Below are positions 1-21,340 of a DNA stretch of 23,766 bases, in pieces; position 1 is the stretch's first letter, and each line of letters begins with the position of its first letter. Under the pieces are notes generated by a model, which had not been told where the DNA came from, made no database searches, and saw nothing but the letters and a program-made list of their open reading frames with translations. This stretch comes from a virus (lineage: Duplodnaviria > Heunggongvirae > Uroviricota > Caudoviricetes): the IMG/VR virus record IMGVR_UViG_2585427763_000009. One strand, 5' to 3'. Both the position numbers and the translations under genes were made by a program.

Positions 1-1011
1 TTATAACGTCACTCCGCCTTTTAGTGGATTCAGAGCGACGGCATTTTGCAGATAGTCAGGCGCAAGGTGCGCATAGGCCATCGTCTGCTGAATGCTCGCA
101 TGTCCCAGAATCTGTTGCAGTGCGATTATATTGCCCCCATTCATCATGAAATGGCTTGCGAATGTATGCCGCAGGATGTGGGTTGCCTGATTGGGGGGTA
201 TATCAGGTTTCACTCTGCGTAAAATCCCGCAAAATTTCTCATAATCAACTTTGAATAATTTGGCGCTGGCCTCCTCTTTAACTTTTTTCTCCAGTTCCTC
301 AGAAATCGGCACGGTTCGCTTTTTACCGTTTTTGGTTTTCAGGAAGGTAACCCTGCAATTTGTAATCTGTGCTGGTTTTAGCGTGGCAACTTCCGTCCAT
401 CTTCCTCCAGTGCTCAGACATAAAAGCGCGACAAGTAAGTCATCACCAGCCAAAACATTTAACAGTTTTTCGATTTCTGCTTTTTCCAGGAACGTCATTT
501 CAGGGTTGGCTTCCGCCAGTGGCGGCAGTCCGTGAATTGGGTGTTGCCCGGAAAATTCATCCAATTGAATTAATTTTGTGAACATGCCGGATAATCGGTA
601 CATGTCACGGTTTATCGTTGCGGCACTGATACCATCACGTAGTCGCATGGAACGATAATCCATCAAAGCCCTTTTGCTCATCCTGCTCACTGGTATATCA
701 CCTATGCCGCTGATGGTTTTGAGTAGATGATTAAACTCTTTTGTTCCATGCTCGTGGTTTTGCCCGTGATATTTCCACCAGATGTCCAGCAACTCACTCA
801 AAGTCCGGCGGTCTGCTCGCTGGCCTCCCCATTCTTTCTGACTGGCATTGGCGATTGTGTATCGCTCAAATGCTAGTGCTTCAGCTTTTCTTTCGAATTT
901 CCTGCGGATGCGTTTTCCGTCGCGGCCGCGAGGTCTAATGTCCACTTCATAGCGACCATCATCGAGCTTCTTAATTGCCATAAGAAAGCCCTCCGGCGCT
1001 GTATTCACCAT
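1..1011 (-). CDS. int: Tyrosine-recombinase integrase of a P2-like prophage (336 aa); complete, stop codon at window position 1-3
   Basis: Full-length reverse-strand ORF; C-terminal region has the tyrosine-recombinase pattern (HTFASHFMMNGGNIIALQQILGHASIQQTMAYAHL); sits next to repressor C and cox as in P2. No search run. Confidence 0.88.
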   Translation of the reverse strand: MVNTAPEGFLMAIKKLDDGRYEVDIRPRGRDGKRIRRKFERKAEALAFERYTIANASQKEWGGQRADRRTLSELLDIWWKYHGQNHEHGTKEFNHLLKTISGIGDIPVSRMSKRALMDYRSMRLRDGISAATINRDMYRLSGMFTKLIQLDEFSGQHPIHGLPPLAEANPEMTFLEKAEIEKLLNVLAGDDLLVALLCLSTGGRWTEVATLKPAQITNCRVTFLKTKNGKKRTVPISEELEKKVKEEASAKLFKVDYEKFCGILRRVKPDIPPNQATHILRHTFASHFMMNGGNIIALQQILGHASIQQTMAYAHLAPDYLQNAVALNPLKGGVTL

Positions 1012-3237: not shown

Positions 3238-3509
3238 GTATTCGTATTGAAATTGGCGAACGTTATGTCGTTACCAGTGACAGCTTTCAGTTTATTCTCC
3301 ACGAGAAAAAGAGAGCGGAAAGCGGTAAAAACGCCGGTCAGGAATGGCTGGCGGTGGTTGGTTATTACCCGAAATTAAGCCAGCTCGTTTCCGGCCTGAT
3401 GCATCACGATATTCTGACCGGAAGCGCAAAGTCTTTTGCTGATTTAAACGGGCAGGTTGAGCAACTCAGCAAGCGTTGTTCAGAGGCTTTTGGCTCATAT
3501 GGCCGTTAA
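3234..3509 (+). CDS. Hypothetical protein, P2 orf83 slot (91 aa); 3' end overlaps A
   Basis: ORF coupled to the previous one (ATGA at 3234); its end overlaps the start of A as in P2. Confidence 0.5.
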   Translation: MSIRIEIGERYVVTSDSFQFILHEKKRAESGKNAGQEWLAVVGYYPKLSQLVSGLMHHDILTGSAKSFADLNGQVEQLSKRCSEAFGSYGR

Positions 3510-5778
3510 AGCCTCCGGGCGTTTTGTCCCTCCGTCAGCATTTGCCGCAGGCACCGGTAAGACGTTTACCGGTGCTTATGCATGGAACGCGCCACGCGAG
3601 GCCGTCGGGCGCGAAAGACCCCTTACACGTGACGAGATGCGTCAGGTGCAAGGTGTTTTATCCACGATTAACCGCCTGCCTTACTTTTTGCGTTCGCTGT
3701 TTACTTCACGCTATGACTACATCCGGCGCAATAAAAGCCCGGTGCACGGGTTTTATTTCCTCACATCCACTTTTCAGCGTCGTTTATGGCCGCGCATTGA
3801 GCGCGTGAATCAGCGCCATGAAATGAACACCGACGCGTCGTTACTGTTTCTGGCAGAGCGTGACCACTATGCGCGCCTGCCGGGAATGAATGACAAGGAG
3901 CTGAAAAAATTTGCCGCCCGTATCTCATCGCAGCTTTTCATGATGTATGAGGAACTCTGCGATGCCTGGGTGGATGCCCATGGCGAAAAAGAATCGCTGT
4001 TTACGGATGAGGCGCAGGCTCACCTGTATGGTCATGTTGCTGGCGCTGCACGTGCTTTCAATATTTCCCCGCTCTACTGGAAAAAATACCGTAAAGGACA
4101 GATGACCACGAGGCAGGCATATTCTGCCATTGCCCGCCTGTTTAACGATGAGTGGTGGACTCATCAGCTTAAAGGCCAGCGTATGCGCTGGCATGAGGCG
4201 TTACTGATTGCTGTCGGGGAGGTCAATAAAGACCGTTCTCCTTATGCCAGTAAACATGCCATTCGTGATGTGCGTGCACGCCGCCAGGCAAATCTGGAAT
4301 TTCTTAAATCGTGTGACCTTGAAAACAGGGAAACCGGCGAGCGCATCGACCTTATCAGTAAGGTGATGGGCAGTATTTCTAATCCTGAAATTCGCCGGAT
4401 GGAGCTGATGAACACCATTGCCGGTATTGAGCGTTACGCCGCAGCAGAGGGTGATGTGGGGATGTTTATCACGCTGACCGCGCCGTCAAAGTATCACCCG
4501 ACACGTCAGGTCGGAAAAGGCGAAAGTAAAACCGTCCAGCTAAATCACGGCTGGAACGATGAGGCATTTAATCCAAAGGATGCGCAGCGTTATCTCTGCC
4601 ATATCTGGAGCCTGATGCGCACGGCATTCAAGGATAATGATTTACAGGTCTACGGTTTGCGTGTCGTCGAGCCACACCACGACGGAACGCCGCACTGGCA
4701 TATGATGCTTTTTTGTAATCCACGCCAGCGTAACCAGATTATTGAAATCATGCGTCGCTATGCGCTCAAAGAGGATGGCGACGAAAGAGGAGCCGCGCGA
4801 AACCGTTTTCAGGCAAAACACCTTAACCGGGGCGGTGCTGCGGGATATATCGCGAAATACATCTCAAAAAACATCGACGGCTATGCACTGGATGGTCAGC
4901 TCGATAATGATACCGGTAGGCCGCTGAAAGACACAGCTGCGGCTGTTACCGCATGGGCGTCAACGTGGCGCATTCCGCAATTTAAAACGGTTGGTCTGCC
5001 GACAATGGGGGCTTACCGTGAACTACGCAAATTGCCTCGCGGCGTCAGCATTGCTGATGAGTTTGACGAGCGCGTCGAGGCTGCACGCGCCGCTGCAGAC
5101 AGTGGTGATTTTGCGTTGTATATCAGCGCGCAGGGCGGGGCAAATGTCCCGCGCGATTGTCAGACTGTCAGGGTCGCCCGTAGCCCGTCGGATGACGTTA
5201 ACGAGTACGAGGAAGAAGTCGAGAGAGTGGTCGGCATTTACGCGCCGCATCTCGGCGCGCGTCATATTCATATCACCAGAACGACGGACTGGCGCATTGT
5301 TCCGAAAGTGCCGGTCGTTGAGCCTTTGACTTTAAAAAGCGGCATCGCCGCGCCTCGGAGTCCTGTCAATAACTGTGGAAAGCTCACCGGTGGTGATACT
5401 TCGTTACCGGCTCCCACACCTTCTGAGCACGCCGCAGCAGTGCTTAATCTGGTTGATGACGGTGTTATTGAATGGAATGACCAGGAGGTCGTGAGGGCGC
5501 TCAGGGGCGCATTAAAACGAGGTCTGAGAAGACCAAACCGTCAGCAAAGAAACGGAAGCCCGTTAAAACAGCATGAAATGGCACCATCGGCCAGACTGAC
5601 CCGGTCAGAACGAATGCAAATTACCCGTATCCGCGTTGACCTTGCTCAGAACGGTATCAGGCCGCAGCGATGGGAGCTTGAGGCGCTGGCGCGTGGAGCA
5701 ATTGTAAATTACGACGGGAAAAAATTCACGTATCCAGTCGCTGATGAGTGGCGGGGATTCTCAGCAGTAATGGAGTGA
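3499..5778 (+). CDS. A: Rolling-circle replication initiator endonuclease gpA (759 aa from ATG 3499)
   Basis: Long ORF; from the internal ATG at 3499 (MAVKASGRF...) it matches the remembered P2 gpA N-terminus and length (~761 aa); contains HUH-type motif (PHWHMMLF) and the AGYIAKYISK tyrosine motif. Confidence 0.88.
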   Translation: MAVKASGRFVPPSAFAAGTGKTFTGAYAWNAPREAVGRERPLTRDEMRQVQGVLSTINRLPYFLRSLFTSRYDYIRRNKSPVHGFYFLTSTFQRRLWPRIERVNQRHEMNTDASLLFLAERDHYARLPGMNDKELKKFAARISSQLFMMYEELCDAWVDAHGEKESLFTDEAQAHLYGHVAGAARAFNISPLYWKKYRKGQMTTRQAYSAIARLFNDEWWTHQLKGQRMRWHEALLIAVGEVNKDRSPYASKHAIRDVRARRQANLEFLKSCDLENRETGERIDLISKVMGSISNPEIRRMELMNTIAGIERYAAAEGDVGMFITLTAPSKYHPTRQVGKGESKTVQLNHGWNDEAFNPKDAQRYLCHIWSLMRTAFKDNDLQVYGLRVVEPHHDGTPHWHMMLFCNPRQRNQIIEIMRRYALKEDGDERGAARNRFQAKHLNRGGAAGYIAKYISKNIDGYALDGQLDNDTGRPLKDTAAAVTAWASTWRIPQFKTVGLPTMGAYRELRKLPRGVSIADEFDERVEAARAAADSGDFALYISAQGGANVPRDCQTVRVARSPSDDVNEYEEEVERVVGIYAPHLGARHIHITRTTDWRIVPKVPVVEPLTLKSGIAAPRSPVNNCGKLTGGDTSLPAPTPSEHAAAVLNLVDDGVIEWNDQEVVRALRGALKRGLRRPNRQQRNGSPLKQHEMAPSARLTRSERMQITRIRVDLAQNGIRPQRWELEALARGAIVNYDGKKFTYPVADEWRGFSAVME

Positions 5779-6107
5779 ACGTCGCCAGTTGCGAAAATTA
5801 TTTACAGGGGGCAGCGTTAAGCATCTAAAGATCTTGTTCTATGATTAGAATGTTTCCTCGTTGCACTCTCGTATAGTTATTTAATGGGAAGATGTACTCT
5901 ATATGTTGTGTTTTGGTGATAAATGAAGCCAAAGGAAGGAGATTTTGCTTGATTGATGGGCGCTCTTTGCTATACACCTTGTATTGAGAAGGAGAAGTAA
6001 TCAAGGATTAAGCTGGCTTTTGTCAAAAATCTGAAAAGCTTTTTTGACTGAATACGATAGCGAGTTGTACTATTTGCGCCCTCAAAAGTAACCGGCGGCT
6101 GGGTAAA

Positions 6108-6482
6108 ATGGGGAAGCAAGGCAAAGGCAAAGGCAACAAAAATCAGGTTAAGGTTACGTGGGCTCAGGCGTGGCGGGATGTAATGATAAGAGCCATGTCT
6201 AATGGTCAGTTGATACCTATTACCATCAGTATTATTTTAATGATTGCTGCATGGAGGTTACCAAAAACAGACTTGTCCAATTTAGCCTTCTCTATTGTTG
6301 ATGGCTTTAAGGAGCATTCCTTGGTTGGTTGGGCTATCTCGGTAATAGTGGGTTTGGCTTGGTCTGCACATGCGCGAATCATGAGGCGCTGTTTTAGTTC
6401 CGAGGCACAGAGAATCGGTAACGAGAAAACAAAGTATCAACAAAGACAGACCACTCAAGCCTTGGGTACAAGTGATAAATAG
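6108..6482 (+). CDS. Small membrane protein, two predicted transmembrane helices (124 aa; true start may be the ATG at 6183)
   Basis: AT-rich ORF; hydrophobic segments LIPITISIILMIAAWRL and LVGWAISVIVGLAWSAHA; first gene after A in the cargo slot; a GGCGGGA Shine-Dalgarno-like run precedes the 6183 ATG. Confidence 0.5.
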   Translation: MGKQGKGKGNKNQVKVTWAQAWRDVMIRAMSNGQLIPITISIILMIAAWRLPKTDLSNLAFSIVDGFKEHSLVGWAISVIVGLAWSAHARIMRRCFSSEAQRIGNEKTKYQQRQTTQALGTSDK

Positions 6483-6502
6483 TTGTTTATTTAGGAGTTA
6501 TT

Positions 6503-7060
6503 ATGCTGACAGTGCTGTTTTATGTGCTGTTGGGTTTAGGCGCAGCACACTTCATTTACGAGCGAATCATTTTGCCGTCCATCCGACTTCATTATAGAAA
6601 CCAATTGTTTGCGCTTCGTGATGTCGCTAGGAGGAAAATCATTGATGGAGGTTCCGATACTTCCATGCAAGCGGCAACACTTGTGCATGACTCATTGAAT
6701 AACGCTATCAATAGATTGCATTTACTCACGTTGCCAAACAAATTTCGTGCTCAAAAGCGTATGGCAGAAAACCATGCAATAAGGCAGAAAATTCGGCGTG
6801 AGATAGATGTTTTCAAACGCTGTGATGATAGAGAAGTTGTTGATGTACTGTTTAAATCCGGTCGGATACTTGAAAATGTACTGTTATTCAATAGCTTAAT
6901 GTTATTGCTTTACATGTTTCCATTTGTCCTTGCTGTATGGTTCTGTGTTAGGGTCATAAAGACAGCAAGTAGTTTAGTACAGTGGGTCAAAGGAAGAGAT
7001 TTAGAGGAAGCTATAATGCTGCTTCCTGATACTCAGGTTGAAAAGGTTGTATACGCATAA
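6503..7060 (+). CDS. Membrane protein with N-terminal and C-terminal hydrophobic helices (185 aa)
   Basis: Starts 20 bp after the previous ORF behind an AGGAG Shine-Dalgarno; hydrophobic N-terminus (LTVLFYVLLGLGAAHFIY) and a C-proximal hydrophobic stretch (LLFNSLMLLLYMFPFVLAVWFCV); followed by a strong terminator. Confidence 0.55.
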   Translation: MLTVLFYVLLGLGAAHFIYERIILPSIRLHYRNQLFALRDVARRKIIDGGSDTSMQAATLVHDSLNNAINRLHLLTLPNKFRAQKRMAENHAIRQKIRREIDVFKRCDDREVVDVLFKSGRILENVLLFNSLMLLLYMFPFVLAVWFCVRVIKTASSLVQWVKGRDLEEAIMLLPDTQVEKVVYA

Positions 7061-7062
7061 AA

Positions 7063-7088
7063 ATCACCCCTTAGGGGGTGATTTTTTT
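7063..7088 (+). terminator. Rho-independent terminator after the two-membrane-protein operon
   Basis: Perfect hairpin ATCACCCC-TTAG-GGGGTGAT followed by TTTTTTT, immediately after the stop at 7060. Confidence 0.65.
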
Positions 7089-7299
7089 ACATGACTTTTG
7101 ATTAGCTGACATTGTAAATCCGCATGTATCAGATGCATTGTTTTGCATGTGGAAATGGGTGTTTTCACTGCCAGCTATCGCTACATGTAGCAAAAACACG
7201 GGCTTAATAAGAAATCATTCTGCCATAAGGCATAACTTCCCCGCGTGCTCAGGTATTGACGTCATAGATATGGATCTTTTTTAATCAAGGTATGGTATT

Positions 7300-8247
7300 A
7301 TGAAGATATTTATTAGTTGGTCAGGTCAGGACAGCCTGGAGATAGCAAAAGTATTACGGGATTGGATACCGAATGTTATTCAAGTAGCTGAGCCGTACGT
7401 ATCAGCGGAAGATATTGATAAAGGCACTCGCTGGGCGACTGATATATCAAAGGAACTTGATGACTCTTCTTATGGGATTATTTGCCTTACAAAAAATAAT
7501 ATTAATGCACCGTGGATAAATTTTGAGGCGGGTGCTTTAGGTAAAAAGGTTGATAAGAGCCGGGTTAGTCCTTTCTTGTTTAAAATTAAACCATCTGAGA
7601 TAACAGGCCCAATATTACAATTCCAGTATACTCGTTCGGATGATAAGAACGATATTTTGAAGTTGATGTTGTCAATAAATAATCAAGCAGGATTTTTGAC
7701 TGAAGAACGCTTAACTAAAGCTTTCGAGCAATGGTGGCCAAGTTTAGAGCGTGAGTTAGATAACATTCAAGATATTAACCCTGTAGATAAAGATTCCACT
7801 AAAAAAACAAAAGGTGATTCGACTTCTGAGATACAAAATCTTTCCAAAATTGTTGAAAGTTTGCTGGATATTAGCCGAACAAATCACCAATTATTGCGTG
7901 ATCCAGCATCATTATTGCCAGAAGAATATGTTAGCAAAATAATAAACAGGGAAGGGCGTAAAGAAACTGTTTTAAAAATTGTAGCTTCTGATTTATTATC
8001 CATGCATCATTCACTAATTCGTGTAAAAAGAAGATTTATTCGTCGTGGTATTGATGAAACATCTAGGAGCGAGTTAATTGAATCATTAAATAAAATGATA
8101 ATGGATTGTTCTAGAGTAATCGCTCACTTAGATAATTATTGTGGGGCTTCATCAAACAATATGTTCAATAGTGCGCTTAGATTGCGGACCAGAAATTTAA
8201 TTGACATGATGGATGAGGAGGATGCAGAACGGGATGAAATGGAATAA
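7300..8247 (+). CDS. TIR-domain protein (N-terminal TIR-like fold ~aa 1-150, C-terminal helical domain of unknown function; 315 aa)
   Basis: N-terminus KIFISWSGQDS (bacterial TIR beta-A strand pattern) and SYGIICLTKNNINAPWINFEAGAL (TIR S-x-W-x-x-x-E pattern, candidate catalytic Glu76 at nt 7525-7527); AT-rich; motif-level recognition only, no search. Confidence 0.6.
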   Translation: MKIFISWSGQDSLEIAKVLRDWIPNVIQVAEPYVSAEDIDKGTRWATDISKELDDSSYGIICLTKNNINAPWINFEAGALGKKVDKSRVSPFLFKIKPSEITGPILQFQYTRSDDKNDILKLMLSINNQAGFLTEERLTKAFEQWWPSLERELDNIQDINPVDKDSTKKTKGDSTSEIQNLSKIVESLLDISRTNHQLLRDPASLLPEEYVSKIINREGRKETVLKIVASDLLSMHHSLIRVKRRFIRRGIDETSRSELIESLNKMIMDCSRVIAHLDNYCGASSNNMFNSALRLRTRNLIDMMDEEDAERDEME

Positions 8248-8791
8248 TCAATTTTGACTAATCATAAATAATTTTGCATATATAAACTTATAATGCCGCA
8301 GCCGCTATTTTTCAGCGGCTGTATATCGCTTATAATGGGTATGTTATTTTTATTTTGATAAAATCATTAAAATTGTCGATGTTATATGAATGCACATGTA
8401 TTATTAATGTTAGAAGATTATGCCTGCTTACGGCTATTGTGCTGAATTCAACTATGAACGCATCAGTATTAAAATCGTTCCATGAAATGTTCTTCGTCTA
8501 CAGCAGATGATGGGCAACGAAAAAATGACGCTGAGTGAGTTGGTCGGGGAGAATTGTTAGAGGTATTTATGGAGTGGTTTAATAATATCGGTCAATCCTG
8601 AGTTGCAGCATCACATAGACGATAGGGAATCTCTCCAGTCGTTCTGGAATGGCAGCGTTGAACAACAAGCACAGCGAGGCGTTAGATGCCCATCAGATTG
8701 ACACAGAGGGTTTATGAATCGCTGGGATTTACTTAGTTTGAAAAATAATATATTTATATGTTTTTGTATTGTGTTTGTTAAGGAGTTTGGA

Positions 8792-8998
8792 TTGAAAAGA
8801 AAACTGATTTGTGTTATGGCTTTTTGGGGGGCGTTGCTGGCTGGTTGTAATGAGAGTAATAAAAAAGAAGTTGAGGGTTGTATTGAAAGAGGTGTCCAAT
8901 ATTTTATAGAGATTGGTTCTTACCCTAAATTAAGTGATGGGCGTGATGCTGTAAAAGTTGCTACTGAACGTTGTAATAGAACAATAACGGCTTTCTGA
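8792..8998 (+). CDS. Small predicted lipoprotein (69 aa from TTG 8792; longer frame opens at ATG 8714)
   Basis: AAGGAG Shine-Dalgarno 6 nt upstream of TTG 8792; N-terminus KRKLICVMAFWGALLAGC is a classic lipoprotein signal with lipobox LAGC; mature part has 3 Cys. The 8714 start would give an atypically long leader. Confidence 0.5.
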   Translation: MKRKLICVMAFWGALLAGCNESNKKEVEGCIERGVQYFIEIGSYPKLSDGRDAVKVATERCNRTITAF

Positions 8999-9000
8999 TA

Positions 9001-9918
9001 ATGGATTATACGAGCTATATAATAGGACAGCTTCAGGTTGAGGATATTATTGATGCAATTAAAGGCGTTAATAATACTAATGTCATAAAAGATTATGTGC
9101 TGCCTGTAGTATTACCAATTATATCTTCTGTGCTGAGTTACTTTATTGCAACTAGGTTGTTTTATCGGCAGGAGGACCTTAAAGCACAAAGAAGAAAGGT
9201 AAGCGTTGTAAATAAATGTATTTATGACTACTTTTCTGCAATGACAACGTTGTTGCAAATTAAAGGGAATTATTATGGTGGGGTAAGTATAAGTGAAAAT
9301 CCTATCGAGAGGGCTTTAGCTTTTCCTGTTGTGGTTTTTTCTGGTGCTCCTCTATCATCAGATTTAAGTGAGTTGGCCTGTATATTGAGTCAAAAGGGAG
9401 TAGGGAATAATAGAGAGCCAGCAAAGACTACTAACTGGGGGGATGCTTTTGCTGTTAGTGATATAGCAAGAAGGTTTAACAGCCTATTGGCTGCATTAAA
9501 TGTTAGGAATGATTTTGATGACACCTATAGAGGAATGATTATTGAATCAACAGGTTCACCTTTGCCTACGATGCGTTTTAAAAATGATGATATTGTTAAT
9601 GCTATAGGTAGTAATAAGGCAGCTTATTACATTGATATTACTGAGCAAATAATGATTATGATAGATGTTTTGTTGCTTGATATTAATCTGTTGCTCAAAG
9701 AGTTGCCATTGTATGCTGAATCGCTGTTTGACAAAAGAGTAATGCAAGAAGATTCAGGGATTCTTAAATTCAATGATTTGCACGAACGTTTTCCTCTACT
9801 TATGAAACCTGTAACGCCACCTTCGATTAAACTCATGTCTGATTATTTGGGGTACAGTGAAGATGAGATCTTACGACGCTATCCATACCCGTTCTTTAAT
9901 ATGCATGATTGTGAATGA
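9001..9918 (+). CDS. Hypothetical membrane-anchored protein (305 aa), translationally coupled to the upstream lipoprotein gene
   Basis: ATG 2 nt after the lipoprotein stop (TGATAATG); one hydrophobic helix (~aa 32-54, VLPVVLPIISSVLSYFIATRLF); AT-rich; no motif I recognise. Confidence 0.55.
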   Translation: MDYTSYIIGQLQVEDIIDAIKGVNNTNVIKDYVLPVVLPIISSVLSYFIATRLFYRQEDLKAQRRKVSVVNKCIYDYFSAMTTLLQIKGNYYGGVSISENPIERALAFPVVVFSGAPLSSDLSELACILSQKGVGNNREPAKTTNWGDAFAVSDIARRFNSLLAALNVRNDFDDTYRGMIIESTGSPLPTMRFKNDDIVNAIGSNKAAYYIDITEQIMIMIDVLLLDINLLLKELPLYAESLFDKRVMQEDSGILKFNDLHERFPLLMKPVTPPSIKLMSDYLGYSEDEILRRYPYPFFNMHDCE

Positions 9919-10022
9919 ATGTGCATATGTCAGAAGCCGTTTTTATTGTCAGTTATCGTCAGTGCTGGCGCGCTCTTGGAGTGTTCATGCAACTGCATTA
10001 AAACCGCCCCACGAAGCGGGCG

Positions 10023-10041
10023 GGCGAGGCGGGGAAAGCAC
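10023..10041. other. Candidate cos cohesive-end site (GGCGAGGCGGGGAAAGCAC)
   Basis: 19-mer matching my memory of the P2 cohesive end, in a GC-rich segment just beyond the 3' end of Q where P2 cos lies; the exact P2 sequence is recalled, not verified. Confidence 0.5.
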
Positions 10042-10171
10042 TGCGCGCTGGCGGTGGTGATGATTGTCTGAGCGCGTCGTGATGGCGTTTAGATTGTGCG
10101 CCGGGGCGTTGGTGTGTCTGCGGGGTGTTTTGTACAGTGGCGAGCGTGTGAGGGCGTGATGACGGGGGTGT

Positions 10172-10193
10172 AAAAAAGCCGCCCGCAGGCGGC
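10172..10193 (-). terminator. Candidate terminator downstream of Q (reverse strand)
   Basis: Hairpin GCCGCC-CGCA-GGCGGC preceded on the + strand by AAAAAA (a T-run on the reverse strand), 6 nt past the Q stop. Confidence 0.4.
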
Positions 10194-10198
10194 GATGT

Positions 10199-11233
10199 TC
10201 AGCCGTTGTCAGTGTCCAGTGAGTAGTTTTTAAAGCGGATGACCTCCTGACCGAGCCAGCCGTTTATTTCCCGAATCCTGTCCTGTAACGGGATAAGTTC
10301 ATTGCGGACAAAGACCTTTGCCACTTTCTCAATATCGCCCAGCGACCCGACGTTTTCCGGCTTGCCACCCATCAACTGAAAGGGGATGCGGTGCGCGTCC
10401 AGCAGGTCAGCGGCGCTGGCTTTTTTGATATTAAAAAAATCGTCCTTCGTGGCCACTTCACTGAGCGGGATAATTTTAATGCCGTCGGCTTTTCCCTGTG
10501 GGGCATAGAGAAACAGGTTTTTAAAGTTATTGCGGCCTTTCGACTTCACCATGTTTTCGCGGAGCATTTCGATATCGTTGCGATCCTGCACGGCATCAGT
10601 GACGTACATGATGTATCCGGCATGTGCGCCGTTTTCGTAATACTTGCGGCGGAACAGCGTGGCCGACTCATTCAGCCAGGCAGAGTTAAGGGCGCTGAGA
10701 TATTCCGGCAGACCGTACAGCTCCTGATTAATATCCGGCTCCAGCAGGTGAAACACGGAGCCGGGCGCGAAAGGTGTCGGCTCGTTGAAGGACGGCACCC
10801 ACCAGTAAACATCCTCCTCCACGCCACGGCGGGTATATTTTGCCGGTGAGGTTTCCAGTCTGATGACCTTACCGGTGGTGCTGTAACGCTTTTCCAGAAA
10901 CGCATTACCGAATACCAGAAAATCCAGCACAAAGCGGCTGAAATCCTGCTGAGAAAGCCACGGGTGTGGGATAAACGTTGAGGCCAGAATGTTACGTTTG
11001 ACGTAAATCGGTGAGCTGTGATGCACGGCAGCACGCAGGCTTTTTGCCAGACCGGTAAAGCTGACTGGTGGCTCATACCATCTGCCGTTACTGATGCACT
11101 CGACGTAATCCAGAATGTCACGGCGGTCGAGTACCGGCACCGGCTCACCAAAGGTGAATGCCTCCATTTTCGGGGCGCTGGCGGTCATTTTTTTTGCCGC
11201 AGGTTGCGGTGTTTTCCCTTTTTTCTTGCTCAT
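10199..11233 (-). CDS. Q: Capsid portal protein gpQ (344 aa)
   Basis: 344-aa reverse-strand ORF; N-terminus MSKKKGKTPQPAAKKMTASAPKMEAFTFGEP matches remembered P2 gpQ; correct size and position next to cos. Confidence 0.88.
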   Translation of the reverse strand: MSKKKGKTPQPAAKKMTASAPKMEAFTFGEPVPVLDRRDILDYVECISNGRWYEPPVSFTGLAKSLRAAVHHSSPIYVKRNILASTFIPHPWLSQQDFSRFVLDFLVFGNAFLEKRYSTTGKVIRLETSPAKYTRRGVEEDVYWWVPSFNEPTPFAPGSVFHLLEPDINQELYGLPEYLSALNSAWLNESATLFRRKYYENGAHAGYIMYVTDAVQDRNDIEMLRENMVKSKGRNNFKNLFLYAPQGKADGIKIIPLSEVATKDDFFNIKKASAADLLDAHRIPFQLMGGKPENVGSLGDIEKVAKVFVRNELIPLQDRIREINGWLGQEVIRFKNYSLDTDNG

Positions 11234-12042
11234 CAGTAAAACTCCAGAATGGTGGATGTCAGCGGGGTGCTGATACCGGCGGTGAGTGGCTCATTTAACA
11301 GGGCGTGCATGGTCGCCCAGGCGAGGTCGGCGTGGCTGGCTTCCTCGCTACGGCTGGCCTCATAGGTGGCGCTGCGTCCGCTGCTGGTCATGGTCTTGCG
11401 GATAGCCATGAACGAGCTGGTGATGTCGGTGGCGCTGCGTCCGCTGCTGGTCATGGTCTTGCGGATAGCCATGAACGAGCTGGTGATGTCGGTGGCGCTG
11501 CGTCCGCTGCTGGTCATGGTCTTGCGGATAGCCATGAACGAGCTGGTGATGTCGGTGGCGCTGCGTCCGCTGCTGGTCATGGTCTTGCGGATAGCCATGA
11601 ACGAGCTGGTGATGTCGGTGGCGCTGCGTCCGCTGCTGGTCATGGTCTTGCGGATAGCCATGAACGAGCTGGTGATGTCGGTGGCGCTGCGTCCGCTGCT
11701 GGTCATGGTCTTGCGGATAGCCATGAACGAGCTGGTGATGTCGGTGGCGCTGACGTCATATTCCAGACAGCCACGGCGGATGACGTCTTTTGCCTTGAGC
11801 ACCATTGCGGTTTTCATTTCCGGCGTGTAGCGGATATCGCGTGCGGCGGGATAGAACGAGCGCACGAGCTGGAACACGCCGACACCGAGGCCGGTGGCAT
11901 CAATTCCGATGTATTCGACGTTGTATTTTTCGGTGAGTTTGCGGATGGATTCCGCCTGAGTGGCAAAGTCCATGCCTTTCCACTGGTGACGCTCAAGTAT
12001 TCTGAATTTACCTCCGGCCACCACCGGCGGTGCCAGCACCAC
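11233..12042 (-). pseudogene. P: 3' remnant of terminase ATPase/nuclease subunit gene P: 5'-truncated, carrying an expanded in-frame tandem repeat
   Basis: Reverse-strand frame ends 1 nt into the Q start (P2 P-Q arrangement) and contains a terminase nuclease-like motif (YIGIDATGLGVGV), but only ~270 codons remain versus ~590 in P2 gpP; the upstream partner on the + strand is lysozyme K, not O/N/M. Confidence 0.7.
11371..11748. repeat. Perfect tandem repeat, 6 copies of a 63-bp unit (in frame; encodes SATDITSSFMAIRKTMTSSGR x6 on the reverse strand)
   Basis: Unit GCTGCGTCCGCTGCTGGTCATGGTCTTGCGGATAGCCATGAACGAGCTGGTGATGTCGGTGGC starts at 11371, 11434, 11497, 11560, 11623 and 11686 with no mismatches; phase is ambiguous by about 6 nt because the flanks share GGTGGC / GCTG. 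Confidence 0.9.
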
Positions 12043-14446: not shown

Positions 14447-15232
14447 TTATGAGTGATTTTTATTTGATGCTTTGTATTCTAAAACCTTCTTATTGGCGTA
14501 AAAGAATTTTGTATATGACAGGAATATAACCAGACCTGAAGTGAAATAGACGAGGGATAGTATTAATAATGCTTTTTTGCGACTGTTATTATCTTTAATC
14601 TCCAGGCTTAACCATTCGGAGTCCTCCTCGTTTAGCTGTAAGAGCTTATTGCAGGCGATTTCAGGAAGTGTGTCTTTTATAAATACGTTTTGCAGTCTCT
14701 TGCAATCGGCAAGGCTATAAGTTTTATTAAATTCAACTGCTTTATTTTTGAAGGATAAAAGAACTTTGTCACTATAAACATAGTACATCATGTTTTTATA
14801 TGGTATGCCTATGGCATCCCTTACTATAACGGATTGTTCGTTGTGTATGTAACATGCGAGGAGAATGTAAAAAATACTGGCCAGAATTACAATTATTGTT
14901 TTAATTATGTGTGGTGGTTTTGTTATGTCACCCCAGATGCGAGTAAGGAAAAAATACGATGTTTTTAGTTTTCCATCAATCAGTCCCTGCTGTATCATTC
15001 TCACATTTTCAATGCCTGATACATTGATTCCGTTAATTATTTTAAATAGTTGAATGTCGCGCCACTCGCGGTCAAGTCTTTTTAATTTTTTGTCTGAATA
15101 TCCAAAATTGAAATAATGTGCAATAAGCCTCATAAGGTTACTTTTACCAAAGCTAAAAAATGCTAATACTGCAAAGCTACAAAGGAAAAAAACGATTAGC
15201 CCCCACACATTAGTCACATTATAGCTGACCAT
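14447..15232 (-). CDS. Hypothetical membrane protein (261 aa, about 3 transmembrane helices), moron in the S/V slot
   Basis: Strongly AT-rich reverse-strand ORF between S and V where P2 carries the non-essential orf30; hydrophobic helices at the N-terminus, middle (IIKTIIVILASIFYILLACYI) and C-terminus (ALLILSLVYFTSGLVIFL). Confidence 0.6.
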   Translation of the reverse strand: MVSYNVTNVWGLIVFFLCSFAVLAFFSFGKSNLMRLIAHYFNFGYSDKKLKRLDREWRDIQLFKIINGINVSGIENVRMIQQGLIDGKLKTSYFFLTRIWGDITKPPHIIKTIIVILASIFYILLACYIHNEQSVIVRDAIGIPYKNMMYYVYSDKVLLSFKNKAVEFNKTYSLADCKRLQNVFIKDTLPEIACNKLLQLNEEDSEWLSLEIKDNNSRKKALLILSLVYFTSGLVIFLSYTKFFYANKKVLEYKASNKNHS

Positions 15233-15315
15233 TACGCTCTCCTTGAATGTTGTCTGGTAGTTCTACAAATGAATCCAGATAGCATAACTTTTATATATTG
15301 TGCAATCTCACATGC

Positions 15316-15951
15316 ATGAACACTCTCGCAAATATTCAGGAACTCGCGCGCGCACTGCGCAACATGATTCGCACCGGCATTATCGTCGAAACCGACCTTA
15401 ACGCCGGTCGCTGCCGCGTGCAGACCGGCGGCATGTGCACCGACTGGCTTCAGTGGCTGACCCATCGCGCCGGTCGTTCGCGCACATGGTGGGCACCTTC
15501 CGTGGGGGAACAGGTGCTGATTCTGTCCGTGGGCGGTGAACTCGACACGGCGTTTGTTCTGCCGGGGATTTATTCCGGCGATAATCCCGCGCCGTCTGCG
15601 TCGGCGGATGCCCTGCATATCCGTTTCCCTGACGGGGCGGTGATTGAGTATGAACCCGAAACCAGTGCGCTCACGGTAAGCGGAATTAAAACGGCCAGCG
15701 TGACGGCTTCCGGTTCTGTTACTGCCACTGTGCCGGTGGTCATGGTGAAAGCGTCAACCCGCATCACCCTGGACACACCGGAGGTGGTCTGCACCAACAG
15801 GCTGATTACCGGCACGCTGGAAGTGCAGAAGGGCGGGACGATGCGCGGCAACATTGAACACACCGGCGGTGAACTCTCATCAAACGGTAAGGTACTGCAT
15901 ACCCATAAACACCCCGGCGACAGCGGCGGCACAACCGGGAGTCCTCTATGA
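15316..15951 (+). CDS. V: Baseplate spike/assembly protein gpV (211 aa from ATG 15316)
   Basis: Matches P2 gpV size and order; start set at MNTLANIQ; stop overlaps the W start. Confidence 0.85.
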   Translation: MNTLANIQELARALRNMIRTGIIVETDLNAGRCRVQTGGMCTDWLQWLTHRAGRSRTWWAPSVGEQVLILSVGGELDTAFVLPGIYSGDNPAPSASADALHIRFPDGAVIEYEPETSALTVSGIKTASVTASGSVTATVPVVMVKASTRITLDTPEVVCTNRLITGTLEVQKGGTMRGNIEHTGGELSSNGKVLHTHKHPGDSGGTTGSPL

Positions 15952-20318: not shown

Positions 20319-20539
20319 GTTGTATAAGCTCTGGTGTGAGATTACATATCTATGGCACAGAGTAAAGCCTAATCTGACAGGCCGCTCTGTGTCTGGAGTA
20401 GATTTTAGTAAAGCATTATTTTATTAGTGCAAATTCTAATCAATACATTTTATGTATATGATATCCTACGGACTTTAATGACTTGGTTTAGGCTAACCAG
20501 ATAACACTGAAGGAATATTTTTGATAATTAAGGTGCGGT

Positions 20540-21133
20540 ATGTTTACTAAGCGACGATTAAAAAATATTAACTGGGAGGCAAGTTCAGTGATTCTTGCTA
20601 TGGTTCTCTTTGTTGGAAATATATTTTATACAAATCATCGTGATGATATAAGCATGGAGGCTGAGAGGGACAGTATCAGAACAATGTTTGCATATGAAAT
20701 CGCTAATAACCATCGCGCTCTCACTTTTCTTGATAAAACGAGACATATTGGCTTTGACGAAAATTCGGAGCATTTTGTTGGCGAGCCTTTTGCCATTAAT
20801 GTCAAATCATTAGGGGGACCTCGCTTACAGATTGCATTAAACCAGACTGATAAAGTGTTTAAATCCTACTTCGGCGAATTAAGTAAGCTTGATAAAGAGG
20901 ATGTTACTCTTCTTATGGACTATTACCATGAGCAAAGCATCCTGCTGGAGCGTGTAAAATCTACGTTACAGAAGATGAAAAGTGGTAATGATATTAAAGT
21001 TGATATTGATGGTTGCTTATTAGAAGAACACTTCATGAATGAGCTTAATCTTTCTAATATTTTGCTTAAACGCTATAGCTATTTATTATCACAACACGCT
21101 AAGGAACATAAAACAAAAGATTTACATAATTGA
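20540..21133 (+). CDS. Hypothetical membrane-anchored protein (197 aa) in the Z/fun slot between G and FI
   Basis: AT-rich ORF after a 220-bp AT-rich spacer; single N-terminal hydrophobic helix (SSVILAMVLFVGNIFY) then a soluble domain; no motif I recognise. Confidence 0.55.
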   Translation: MFTKRRLKNINWEASSVILAMVLFVGNIFYTNHRDDISMEAERDSIRTMFAYEIANNHRALTFLDKTRHIGFDENSEHFVGEPFAINVKSLGGPRLQIALNQTDKVFKSYFGELSKLDKEDVTLLMDYYHEQSILLERVKSTLQKMKSGNDIKVDIDGCLLEEHFMNELNLSNILLKRYSYLLSQHAKEHKTKDLHN

Positions 21134-21340
21134 TAATCTGCTAATGGTTATTCATGGGGTAACTATGTTTTATATGTAATCCAGCCCAGATGAATTATTG
21201 ATTCTGGATAATAACCGCAGAGCGGCATATACCCTGACAGGCAAATGTCCGCTTCTTGCTCAAAGCAGACTGTCAGATTTGATAACTTTTGGGCTATGTA
21301 AACTGTCAGTCGGAAAATGAGTGTGTACAAATCAGGACAG

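Follow-up and report, generated by a model that had tools for sequence, protein, structure and literature searches.

The interval between replication gene A and cos in P2-like phages is an anti-phage hotspot, home to tin, old and many validated systems (PMC9122126; PMC9519451). Among these is the 2TM+1TM+TIR system of the P2-like phage AC1, which protects against lambda, LF82_P8 and P2 (Rousset 2022; PMC9122126). Here we analyse another cargo of this A-cos slot, found in 23,766 nucleotides of viral DNA (Duplodnaviria; Heunggongvirae; Uroviricota; Caudoviricetes; IMG/VR record IMGVR_UViG_2585427763_000009), a stretch that we refer to at its full length as the window. The window is a P2-like prophage. 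Between its gene A and cos, and next to a copy of the AC1 system, it carries a gene for a small lipoprotein followed directly by a gene for a 305-amino-acid (305-aa) membrane protein. We find that the two genes form an independent, horizontally mobile cassette. On grounds of guilt by association, the pair is a credible candidate for a new module of phage exclusion or defence, though still an unproven one. The coordinates of all features are collected in Table 1.

An initial annotation, made without database searches, had proposed that the pair is a distinct module in the P2 hotspot. Both the slot and the distinctness are borne out by its distribution. Gene order is constant, with the lipoprotein gene immediately upstream of the membrane protein gene and the pair always in the slot between A and cos or portal. 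We recovered four sequence variants from P2-like prophages, at 98%, 96%, 57% and 54% identity, and the two genes occur together in every one. Their contexts differ. The TIR system accompanies the pair in the window, in viral contigs L033 and L034, in metagenome contig L036 and in 13 further complete Escherichia coli genomes. In E. coli MS 16-3 and Salmonella Potsdam-type prophages the pair stands without that system and comes after a DUF3850/ASCH gene. It is the sole cargo, directly after A, in E. coli CP058063 and four enterotoxigenic E. coli (ETEC) genomes; in this form the lipoprotein is 59% and its partner ~54% identical. Lastly, in the 3.8-kb assembly L003 (57% identity) it precedes a gene for a 433-aa protein with a weak DzbB-like match. 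Divergence of the two genes is similar, at 59% for the lipoprotein and 54–57% for the membrane protein. The window-type cassette was present in 15 of 5426 complete E. coli genomes, and a second variant in four more; most P2-like phages have no pair. Because it is both dispensable and rare, the pair is not a core phage function.

The edges of the cassette are well defined. Homology between contexts extends from ~8642 through to cos. The ~540-bp leader initially described upstream of the pair is therefore composite, because this homology starts only at ~8642 and positions 8250–8633 lie within the published clone of the TIR system: ~390 bp (8250–8633) are the 3' flank of that system, and only ~150 bp (8642–8791) travel with the pair. 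These ~150 bp presumably contain the pair's own promoter. They also contain a short relic of gene A, derived from its 3' end, which matches the true gene end at 18 of 21 nt in L029 and 21 of 25 nt in L003. In CP058063 the cassette still stands right behind A, and the relic suggests that this was once the arrangement here too; it also suggests that cassettes may be exchanged through recombination at the end of A. On the other side, cos begins 104 nt past the stop of the 305-aa gene. Its sequence, GGCGAGGCGGGGAAAGCAC, is one that we take to be the P2 cohesive end, and the first base of the linear P2_AC1 record is exactly the cos junction; the pair is thus the last cassette before cos. The AT-rich character of the pair and the GC-rich cos region were correctly described at the outset: guanine-plus-cytosine (GC) content is 35–39% over 8400–9800 and 53–60% from 9800 onward, in the phage backbone. 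This low-GC composition marks the pair as foreign cargo. Rfam and repeat scans of 8200–10250 returned no match. In E. coli MS 16-3, a gene for a 333-aa hypothetical protein lies between cos and portal (L002, 7646–8647), so that cos separates it from the pair; searches of PHROG, NCBIfam and PADLOC gave no match for it.

The first gene is an open reading frame (ORF) with an AAGGAG Shine-Dalgarno sequence, a TTG start and a lipoprotein signal, as previously read from the sequence, and its product is 68 aa long. The signal peptide (MKRK-LICVMAFWGALL-AGC, coded by 8792–8845) combines a basic n-region with a hydrophobic core of 12 residues, and ends in the lipobox L-A-G-C (LLAGC), so that n-region, h-region and lipobox ([LVI][ASTVI][GAS]C) are those of a signal peptidase II substrate. 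Cys19 (codon 8846–8848) is the predicted lipidation site. The lipobox is kept as LLSGC in the 59%-identical homologue and as LLMGC in a high-GC homologue. The NCBI Prokaryotic Genome Annotation Pipeline (PGAP) annotates a longer form of 94 aa from ATG 8714. We nevertheless regard TTG 8792 as the true start, because E. coli MS 16-3 has ATG and Salmonella has GTG at the equivalent codon, PGAP itself gives the 68-aa form for MS 16-3, and the divergent homologues start 19–20 residues ahead of the Cys.

The mature part of the lipoprotein is a helix-loop-helix of 50 aa with two further cysteines, Cys30 and Cys61. All homologues (59–99% identity) retain these two as well as the lipobox Cys. The mature domain has 28 invariant columns across five homologues, and substitutions among close variants fall almost wholly in the signal peptide. 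An AlphaFold2 model places helices at residues 15–40 and 53–66, with a block-mean predicted local distance difference test (pLDDT) score of 82–92 over residues 21–60; a C30–C61 disulfide likely staples the hairpin. The protein matches phrog_32041 (9.5e-38) and has few relatives (five clusters). No match was found in Pfam or in a profile search of PDB sequences, and the NCBIfam model EexN reached only E = 0.062 (13 bits, cut-off 33), over signal-peptide residues 5–25 only. A degenerate DNA pattern for the C-terminus (VATERCNRTxTAF) recovered only the same two variants from metagenomes. Under the Lol-avoidance rule of E. coli, Asp at position +2 after the lipidated Cys causes retention in the inner membrane. 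Residue +2 is Asp in three of the four divergent forms (L029, L003 and L031) and Asn in the window. This pattern suggests that the lipoprotein stays in the inner membrane, where it would sit beside the periplasmic N-terminal tail of the 305-aa protein.

The two genes nearly touch. The lipoprotein stop (TGA, 8996–8998) is followed by the dinucleotide TA and then by ATG 9001, in agreement with the 2-nt spacing first noted. With no separate Shine-Dalgarno sequence for the 305-aa start, which follows after these 2 nt, coupled translation is implied for the window form; the gap is 33–34 nt in the divergent forms L029 and L003. The 305-aa protein consists of an acidic N-tail (residues 1–32), a transmembrane (TM) helix (residues 33–55; nt 9097–9165) and an all-alpha C-terminal domain of ~250 aa. 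Residues 33–55 are its sole strongly hydrophobic N-proximal segment, so the single N-proximal helix of the initial annotation stands. The AlphaFold2 model is wholly helical (pLDDT 88.8; predicted TM-score, pTM, 0.81). The ratio of nonsynonymous to synonymous substitution rates (dN/dS) is 0.05–0.33 among close variants, indicating that the gene is under purifying selection. Just past the TM helix, at window position 9175, the window encodes Asp59 (GAC; RQEDLK), where six of six other near-identical copies have Tyr59 (RQEYLK).

Several features bear on how the protein is oriented. In 44 of 57 family members, Lys and Arg are enriched C-terminal to the TM helix; the N-tail is acidic. Four homologues have, by eye, a signal-peptide-like N-terminus plus an extension of 50–80 aa before the family TM helix, and two others have a two-helix hairpin in place of that N-terminal arrangement. 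The C-terminal domain is predicted to be cytoplasmic because both architectures require it. The likely topology, as judged from these sequences, is thus a short periplasmic N-tail, one TM helix and a cytoplasmic helical bundle. We also considered whether the N-terminal extensions are fused lipoprotein domains; hhalign was negative, and the idea was rejected.

The pair had been said to match no nameable family. This holds for curated families: the 305-aa protein has no Pfam, NCBIfam, PADLOC or PDB-sequence match above noise, Pfam found nothing in 57 family members, and Foldseek gave no match at E ≤ 0.001 in the PDB or the BFVD viral library. No housekeeping or phage structural family emerged from these sequence and fold searches. 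It does not hold for PHROGs, where the protein is a member of phrog_21267 (E = 6.6e-149, residues 9–300 against profile positions 1–291 of 291), annotated in PHROGs v4 as of unknown function. All 57 aligned relatives match the same profile. A full HMMER scan placed at least 168 clusters in the family at E ≤ 1e-3, aligned over their full length at 22–29% identity; a word-indexed protein search gave only two to five clusters per protein. Family members mostly have 278–300 aa (about 285 aa), and genome-derived relatives come from Nitrosomonas, Halomonas, Acinetobacter, Vibrio, Alteromonas and Erwinia. Residues L84, K88, P101 and R104 are invariant, and P35, N71, Y91, N158, R169, E215 and D222 nearly so. 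Distant homologues have no upstream lipoprotein gene, and family members are usually without one. We therefore regard the membrane protein as the core and the lipoprotein as a clade-specific add-on, and we infer that in many Proteobacteria, and in temperate phages of other kinds, the core family acts without a partner gene.

The reading we favour is that the pair is an envelope-located anti-phage module, acting by exclusion or abortive infection; we would put its chance close to even, though somewhat below. The two proteins would build an inner-membrane complex that excludes or aborts infection by other phages. The 305-aa core would cross the inner membrane once, with its acidic N-terminal helix of ~30 residues in the periplasm and its helical bundle of ~250 aa in the cytoplasm. 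In the enterobacterial P2 clade, this core would have acquired a small lipoprotein, encoded upstream and translationally coupled or closely spaced. The lipoprotein's helix-loop-helix hairpin of ~45 aa, probably disulfide-closed, would adjoin the 305-aa protein's periplasmic tail and might serve as a periplasmic sensor or modulator. How the complex would act is speculative. It could block the passage of phage DNA at the inner membrane (superinfection exclusion), or an envelope or cytoplasmic infection signal could lead to membrane damage (abortive infection). A bolder version, which we consider doubtful, is that phrog_21267 is the core of a widespread, unrecognised class of single-pass membrane-anchored anti-phage proteins and that, in P2-like phages of Enterobacteria, a dedicated inner-membrane lipoprotein was recruited as a periplasmic sensor of envelope breach at DNA injection, making a two-component trans-envelope exclusion or abortive system that has no known relative.

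A number of findings weigh against the anti-phage reading, beginning with the bond between the two proteins. Their functional link has only the four co-inherited variants behind it, because the core family mostly occurs without the lipoprotein (in nearly all other lineages) and the lipoprotein domain also occurs solo, adjoining a dehydrogenase gene in a high-GC bacterium (L031). They could then be linked but independent cargo genes: the lipoprotein an exclusion factor of Llp/Cor/Ltp type, acting at the receptor or the periplasmic injection step, and the 305-aa protein a single-gene defence or exclusion factor. The wider spacing in L029 and L003, where stop and start are not coupled, and a lineage that keeps an intact 305-aa gene beside a frameshifted lipoprotein gene fit this explanation. 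However, the enterobacterial clade never shows the genes apart, across four variants down to 54% identity and approximately five neighbourhoods, and the divergence of the two genes is matched. The window's 305-aa start, 2 nt past the lipoprotein stop and lacking a Shine-Dalgarno sequence, also speaks for a joint unit, and Asp at +2 predicts an inner-membrane location that would be unusual for a receptor blocker. On balance, we judge independent cargo unlikely.

Other findings weigh against a role in defence altogether. The fold is a generic helical bundle without a catalytic signature, and a PADLOC scan of the 57 family members gave only two chance-level matches (0.004 and 0.009). A sigma-70 scan of 8642–8791 found no promoter site. 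Some homologues have housekeeping neighbours: metH and a UvrD-family helicase gene, and also ribF-ileS-lspA as inferred from a pooled family summary. In the one relevant experiment, the published clone pFD240, which is without the pair, reproduced the AC1 lysogen's protection against lambda and LF82_P8 (PMC9122126); this result is uninformative on the pair, as AC1 has a frameshift in its lipoprotein gene. The pair might instead act in lysogenic conversion or envelope fitness, for example in stress tolerance, resistance to serum or antibiotics, or membrane homeostasis, or serve a function of the phage itself, such as modulating lysis or DNA injection or packaging near cos. The former has a precedent in prophage 'moron' lipoproteins that benefit the host, among them lambda Bor. 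The lack of homology to any defence model and the housekeeping neighbours of several family members are in keeping with either, as is a cassette lying 104 nt from cos.

The settings in which the core family recurs argue in the other direction. A 23%-identical homologue directly follows gene A in the divergent P2-like phage L043, whose gene A is 55% identical. The neighbourhoods of distant homologues are for the most part accessory. They include a site near a cI-like repressor gene (recognised by eye) in viral contig L042, one next to umuDC in viral contig L041, the interior of an operon for type I restriction-modification, a position flanked by resolvases within the accessory region of a conjugative plasmid from Erwinia, and one beside IS21 and an integrase. 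Further homologues adjoin Avs2, DUF4238, and DUF3800 plus a DUF2806/Abi_alpha-like gene; DUF4238 is a single-gene defence system validated by Rousset 2022. This association with defence genes and mobile cargo is suggestive. A non-defence role has to account for a family that recurs beside Avs2, DUF4238, type I restriction-modification and Abi_alpha-like genes and in immunity-region or hotspot positions of phages, and for a slot dominated by anti-phage cargo (PMC9122126; PMC9519451). A function of the phage's own is further disfavoured by the rarity and dispensability of the cassette (15 of 5426 complete E. coli genomes plus four with the second variant). We regard a non-defence role as improbable, to about the same degree as independent cargo. 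In L043 (IMG/VR UViG_2784746741_000003, 4926–10056) the A-cos hotspot stacks several cargos, among them the phrog_21267 homologue. Judged by eye, the others are Hcp-like, DUF2778/Tlde1-like and small membrane protein genes on the minus strand, and then a nucleotidyltransferase-like and multi-TM pair.

The three genes upstream of the pair had gone unrecognised in the initial annotation; they are the validated 2TM+1TM+TIR system, with PADLOC matches of 2e-58 (2TM-TIR), 3e-75 (1TM-TIR) and 2e-118 (TIR-TM). The primers of pFD240 (Table S2, PMC9122126) map to window positions 5843–5868 and 8609–8633. The tested insert thus ends 159 nt before the lipoprotein start and leaves the pair out. Table S5 of the same study lists five genes as one locus, in which the pair appears as 'hypothetical + hypothetical' (PMC9122126). 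The pair is hence not unrecognised in the strict sense, having already been catalogued, but literature searches, by protein accession and for lipoprotein systems of the P2 hotspot, turned up neither a description of it nor an experiment on it. The joint listing, together with the adjacent and co-oriented arrangement in the window, AC1 and 13 further complete E. coli genomes, could mean that the pair is an accessory of the TIR system, for example as extra effectors activated by a TIR-made signal. This reading is largely refuted, and we give it next to no weight. The three-gene clone is fully active without the pair, the pair occurs without TIR genes in at least four other contexts (MS 16-3, Salmonella, CP058063 and L003), and common homology starts only at 8642. 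Neither pair protein matches any PADLOC component model at E ≤ 1, and hhalign shows no relationship of the 305-aa family to the 1TM or TIR proteins.

In one lineage the lipoprotein gene is broken. The G6 tract in its signal-peptide region is G5 in phage P2_AC1 (L007), E. coli M21816 (L038) and the two IMG/VR viral contigs L033 and L034, and this frameshift explains why the P2_AC1 and M21816 annotations have no lipoprotein gene. All four G5 sequences have the derived single-nucleotide polymorphism (SNP) 9418A in common, and therefore represent one mutant lineage. Phase variation between G5 and G6 was considered but is not demonstrated by sequences from a single lineage. The 305-aa gene remains intact throughout; that of P2_AC1 (NC_070903) is 99.3% identical and lies next to cos. 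This lineage bears on whether the pair is a toxin-immunity or addiction module, in which a toxic 305-aa protein is neutralised by the lipoprotein and the prophage thereby stabilised. The layout, with a small gene ahead of and tightly coupled to one for a larger membrane protein and both carried by a mobile element, does resemble that of many two-gene toxin systems. Yet AC1, which is viable and plaque-forming, M21816 and the two viral contigs carry an intact 305-aa gene with a broken lipoprotein gene, and most family members have no partner. The mature lipoprotein would also be in the periplasm, across the membrane from most of the 305-aa protein, for which a cytoplasmic location is predicted. 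A toxin-immunity pair is therefore very unlikely. Note that, because the AC1 lipoprotein gene is frameshifted, data from AC1 lysogens say nothing on the intact pair.

Table 1. Features of the window discussed in the text (positions in nucleotides from the first letter of the window)
Feature	Position	Strand	Basis or remark
Integrase gene	1–1011	-	P2-like prophage
Replication gene A	3457–5778	+	P2-like prophage
2TM+1TM+TIR system (context, outside the pair)	5843–8633; genes 6108–6482, 6503–7060, 7300–8247	+	PADLOC and clone map
Upstream region travelling with the cassette	8642–8791	+	Homology to MS 16-3, Salmonella and UViG begins at ~8642
Relic of gene A 3' end, 21–25 nt	~8714–8734	+	D-E-W-P-G-F-T; just upstream of the lipoprotein gene
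Shine-Dalgarno sequence AAGGAG	8780–8785	+	6 nt ahead of TTG; variants have AAGGTG there
68-aa lipoprotein gene	8792–8998	+	TTG start, lipobox; product MKRKLICVMAFWGALLAGC...
G6 tract in signal-peptide coding region	8826–8831	+	G5 (frameshift) in some relatives
305-aa bitopic membrane protein gene, phrog_21267 family	9001–9918	+	ORF; hidden Markov model (HMM) match
P2-type cos site	10023–10041	.	Exact match to GGCGAGGCGGGGAAAGCAC; right-hand hotspot boundary
Portal gene	10199–11233	-	P2-like prophage
ORFs of the S–V island	14447–15232 and 15232–15618	-	261-aa product without a Pfam match on record

The window is ~99% identical to a prophage that adjoins cpxP in E. coli D7. Relative to this prophage (L001, 12503–17819), ~5.3 kb are gone at the window junction ~12052, comprising the remainder of terminase P and the scaffold, capsid, small terminase, head completion, tail protein X and holin genes. 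With this head, terminase and holin region missing, the window prophage is defective, although its hotspot cargo is intact. Positions 11365–11757 hold 6.2 tandem copies of a 63-bp unit (99% identity). This repeat falls within the minus-strand gene for the terminase ATPase (P) and keeps the frame (21 codons); the intact D7 prophage has ~1 copy. Two further AT-rich regions were observed. One is an island of 34–38% GC between tail genes S and V (14447–15618), on the opposite strand to them, at a position that is presumably the P2 orf30 site. The other, at 20400–21200, follows the tail-fibre assembly gene and contains an ORF for 197 aa (20540–21133, plus strand) that has no Pfam match. This ORF sits in the Z/fun slot, the second P2 defence hotspot (Vassallo 2022), and may be another cargo gene.

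The pair is a well-delimited, conserved candidate with a broad core family that is without functional annotation; such candidates are common in this hotspot. If the pair is anti-phage, it adds a defence or exclusion family that has no relative among the described systems. Its core family would span at least 168 sequence clusters and would act at the cell envelope, a site where few mechanisms are understood. A lipoprotein with a bitopic partner would also be a tractable system in which to study how the inner membrane is spanned by a signal or block during phage DNA entry. The published experiment leaves a corresponding gap, as the AC1 hotspot has five genes of which three were tested, and AC1's copy of the lipoprotein gene is broken. 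Should it have no anti-phage role, the pair would be just another prophage 'moron' (a non-essential cargo gene) that is uncharacterised.

Small phage lipoproteins that protect the host cell are well known, namely T5 Llp, phi80/N15 Cor and Ltp of the Streptococcus phage TP-J34, and T5 Llp is a disulfide-containing mini-domain. Searches of NCBIfam, Pfam, PHROG annotations and PDB revealed no sequence similarity of the pair's lipoprotein to any of the three. Llp and Cor are single genes whose products act at outer-membrane receptors; in contrast, the lipoprotein described here has an inner-membrane-type +2 residue in most variants and, in the enterobacterial variants, is partnered with a bitopic membrane protein. 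A 'lipoprotein' system of Vassallo 2022 is reportedly modelled in PADLOC, and no PADLOC model matched our lipoprotein. T4 Imm and Sp offer a functional analogy only, as a two-protein envelope block of DNA entry with membrane and periplasm-facing parts. By description, Imm and Sp differ in coming from a lytic phage in which their genes are not linked, and they include neither a lipoprotein nor a cytoplasmic domain of 250 aa.

The neighbouring 2TM+1TM+TIR system of AC1 likewise consists of small membrane proteins, but it is a separate module whose clone ends at 8633. Within phrog_21267, the 305-aa protein is a full-length member, whereas its lipoprotein partner, phrog_32041, is specific to the enterobacterial P2 clade. 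Compared with the A-cos cargo of P2 more generally (tin, old and the systems of Rousset 2022 and Vassallo 2022), the pair is likewise AT-rich, swappable, stackable and expected to be prophage-expressed, but neither the window pair nor the L003 pair has a significant HMM match in PADLOC-DB v2.0.0, and the pair is without sequence or profile similarity to any of these systems. Because the sequence, profile and fold tests were negative, we place it outside the families compared. By analogy, the pair appears to behave like other P2 hotspot cargo and to resemble, if loosely, the envelope exclusion systems.

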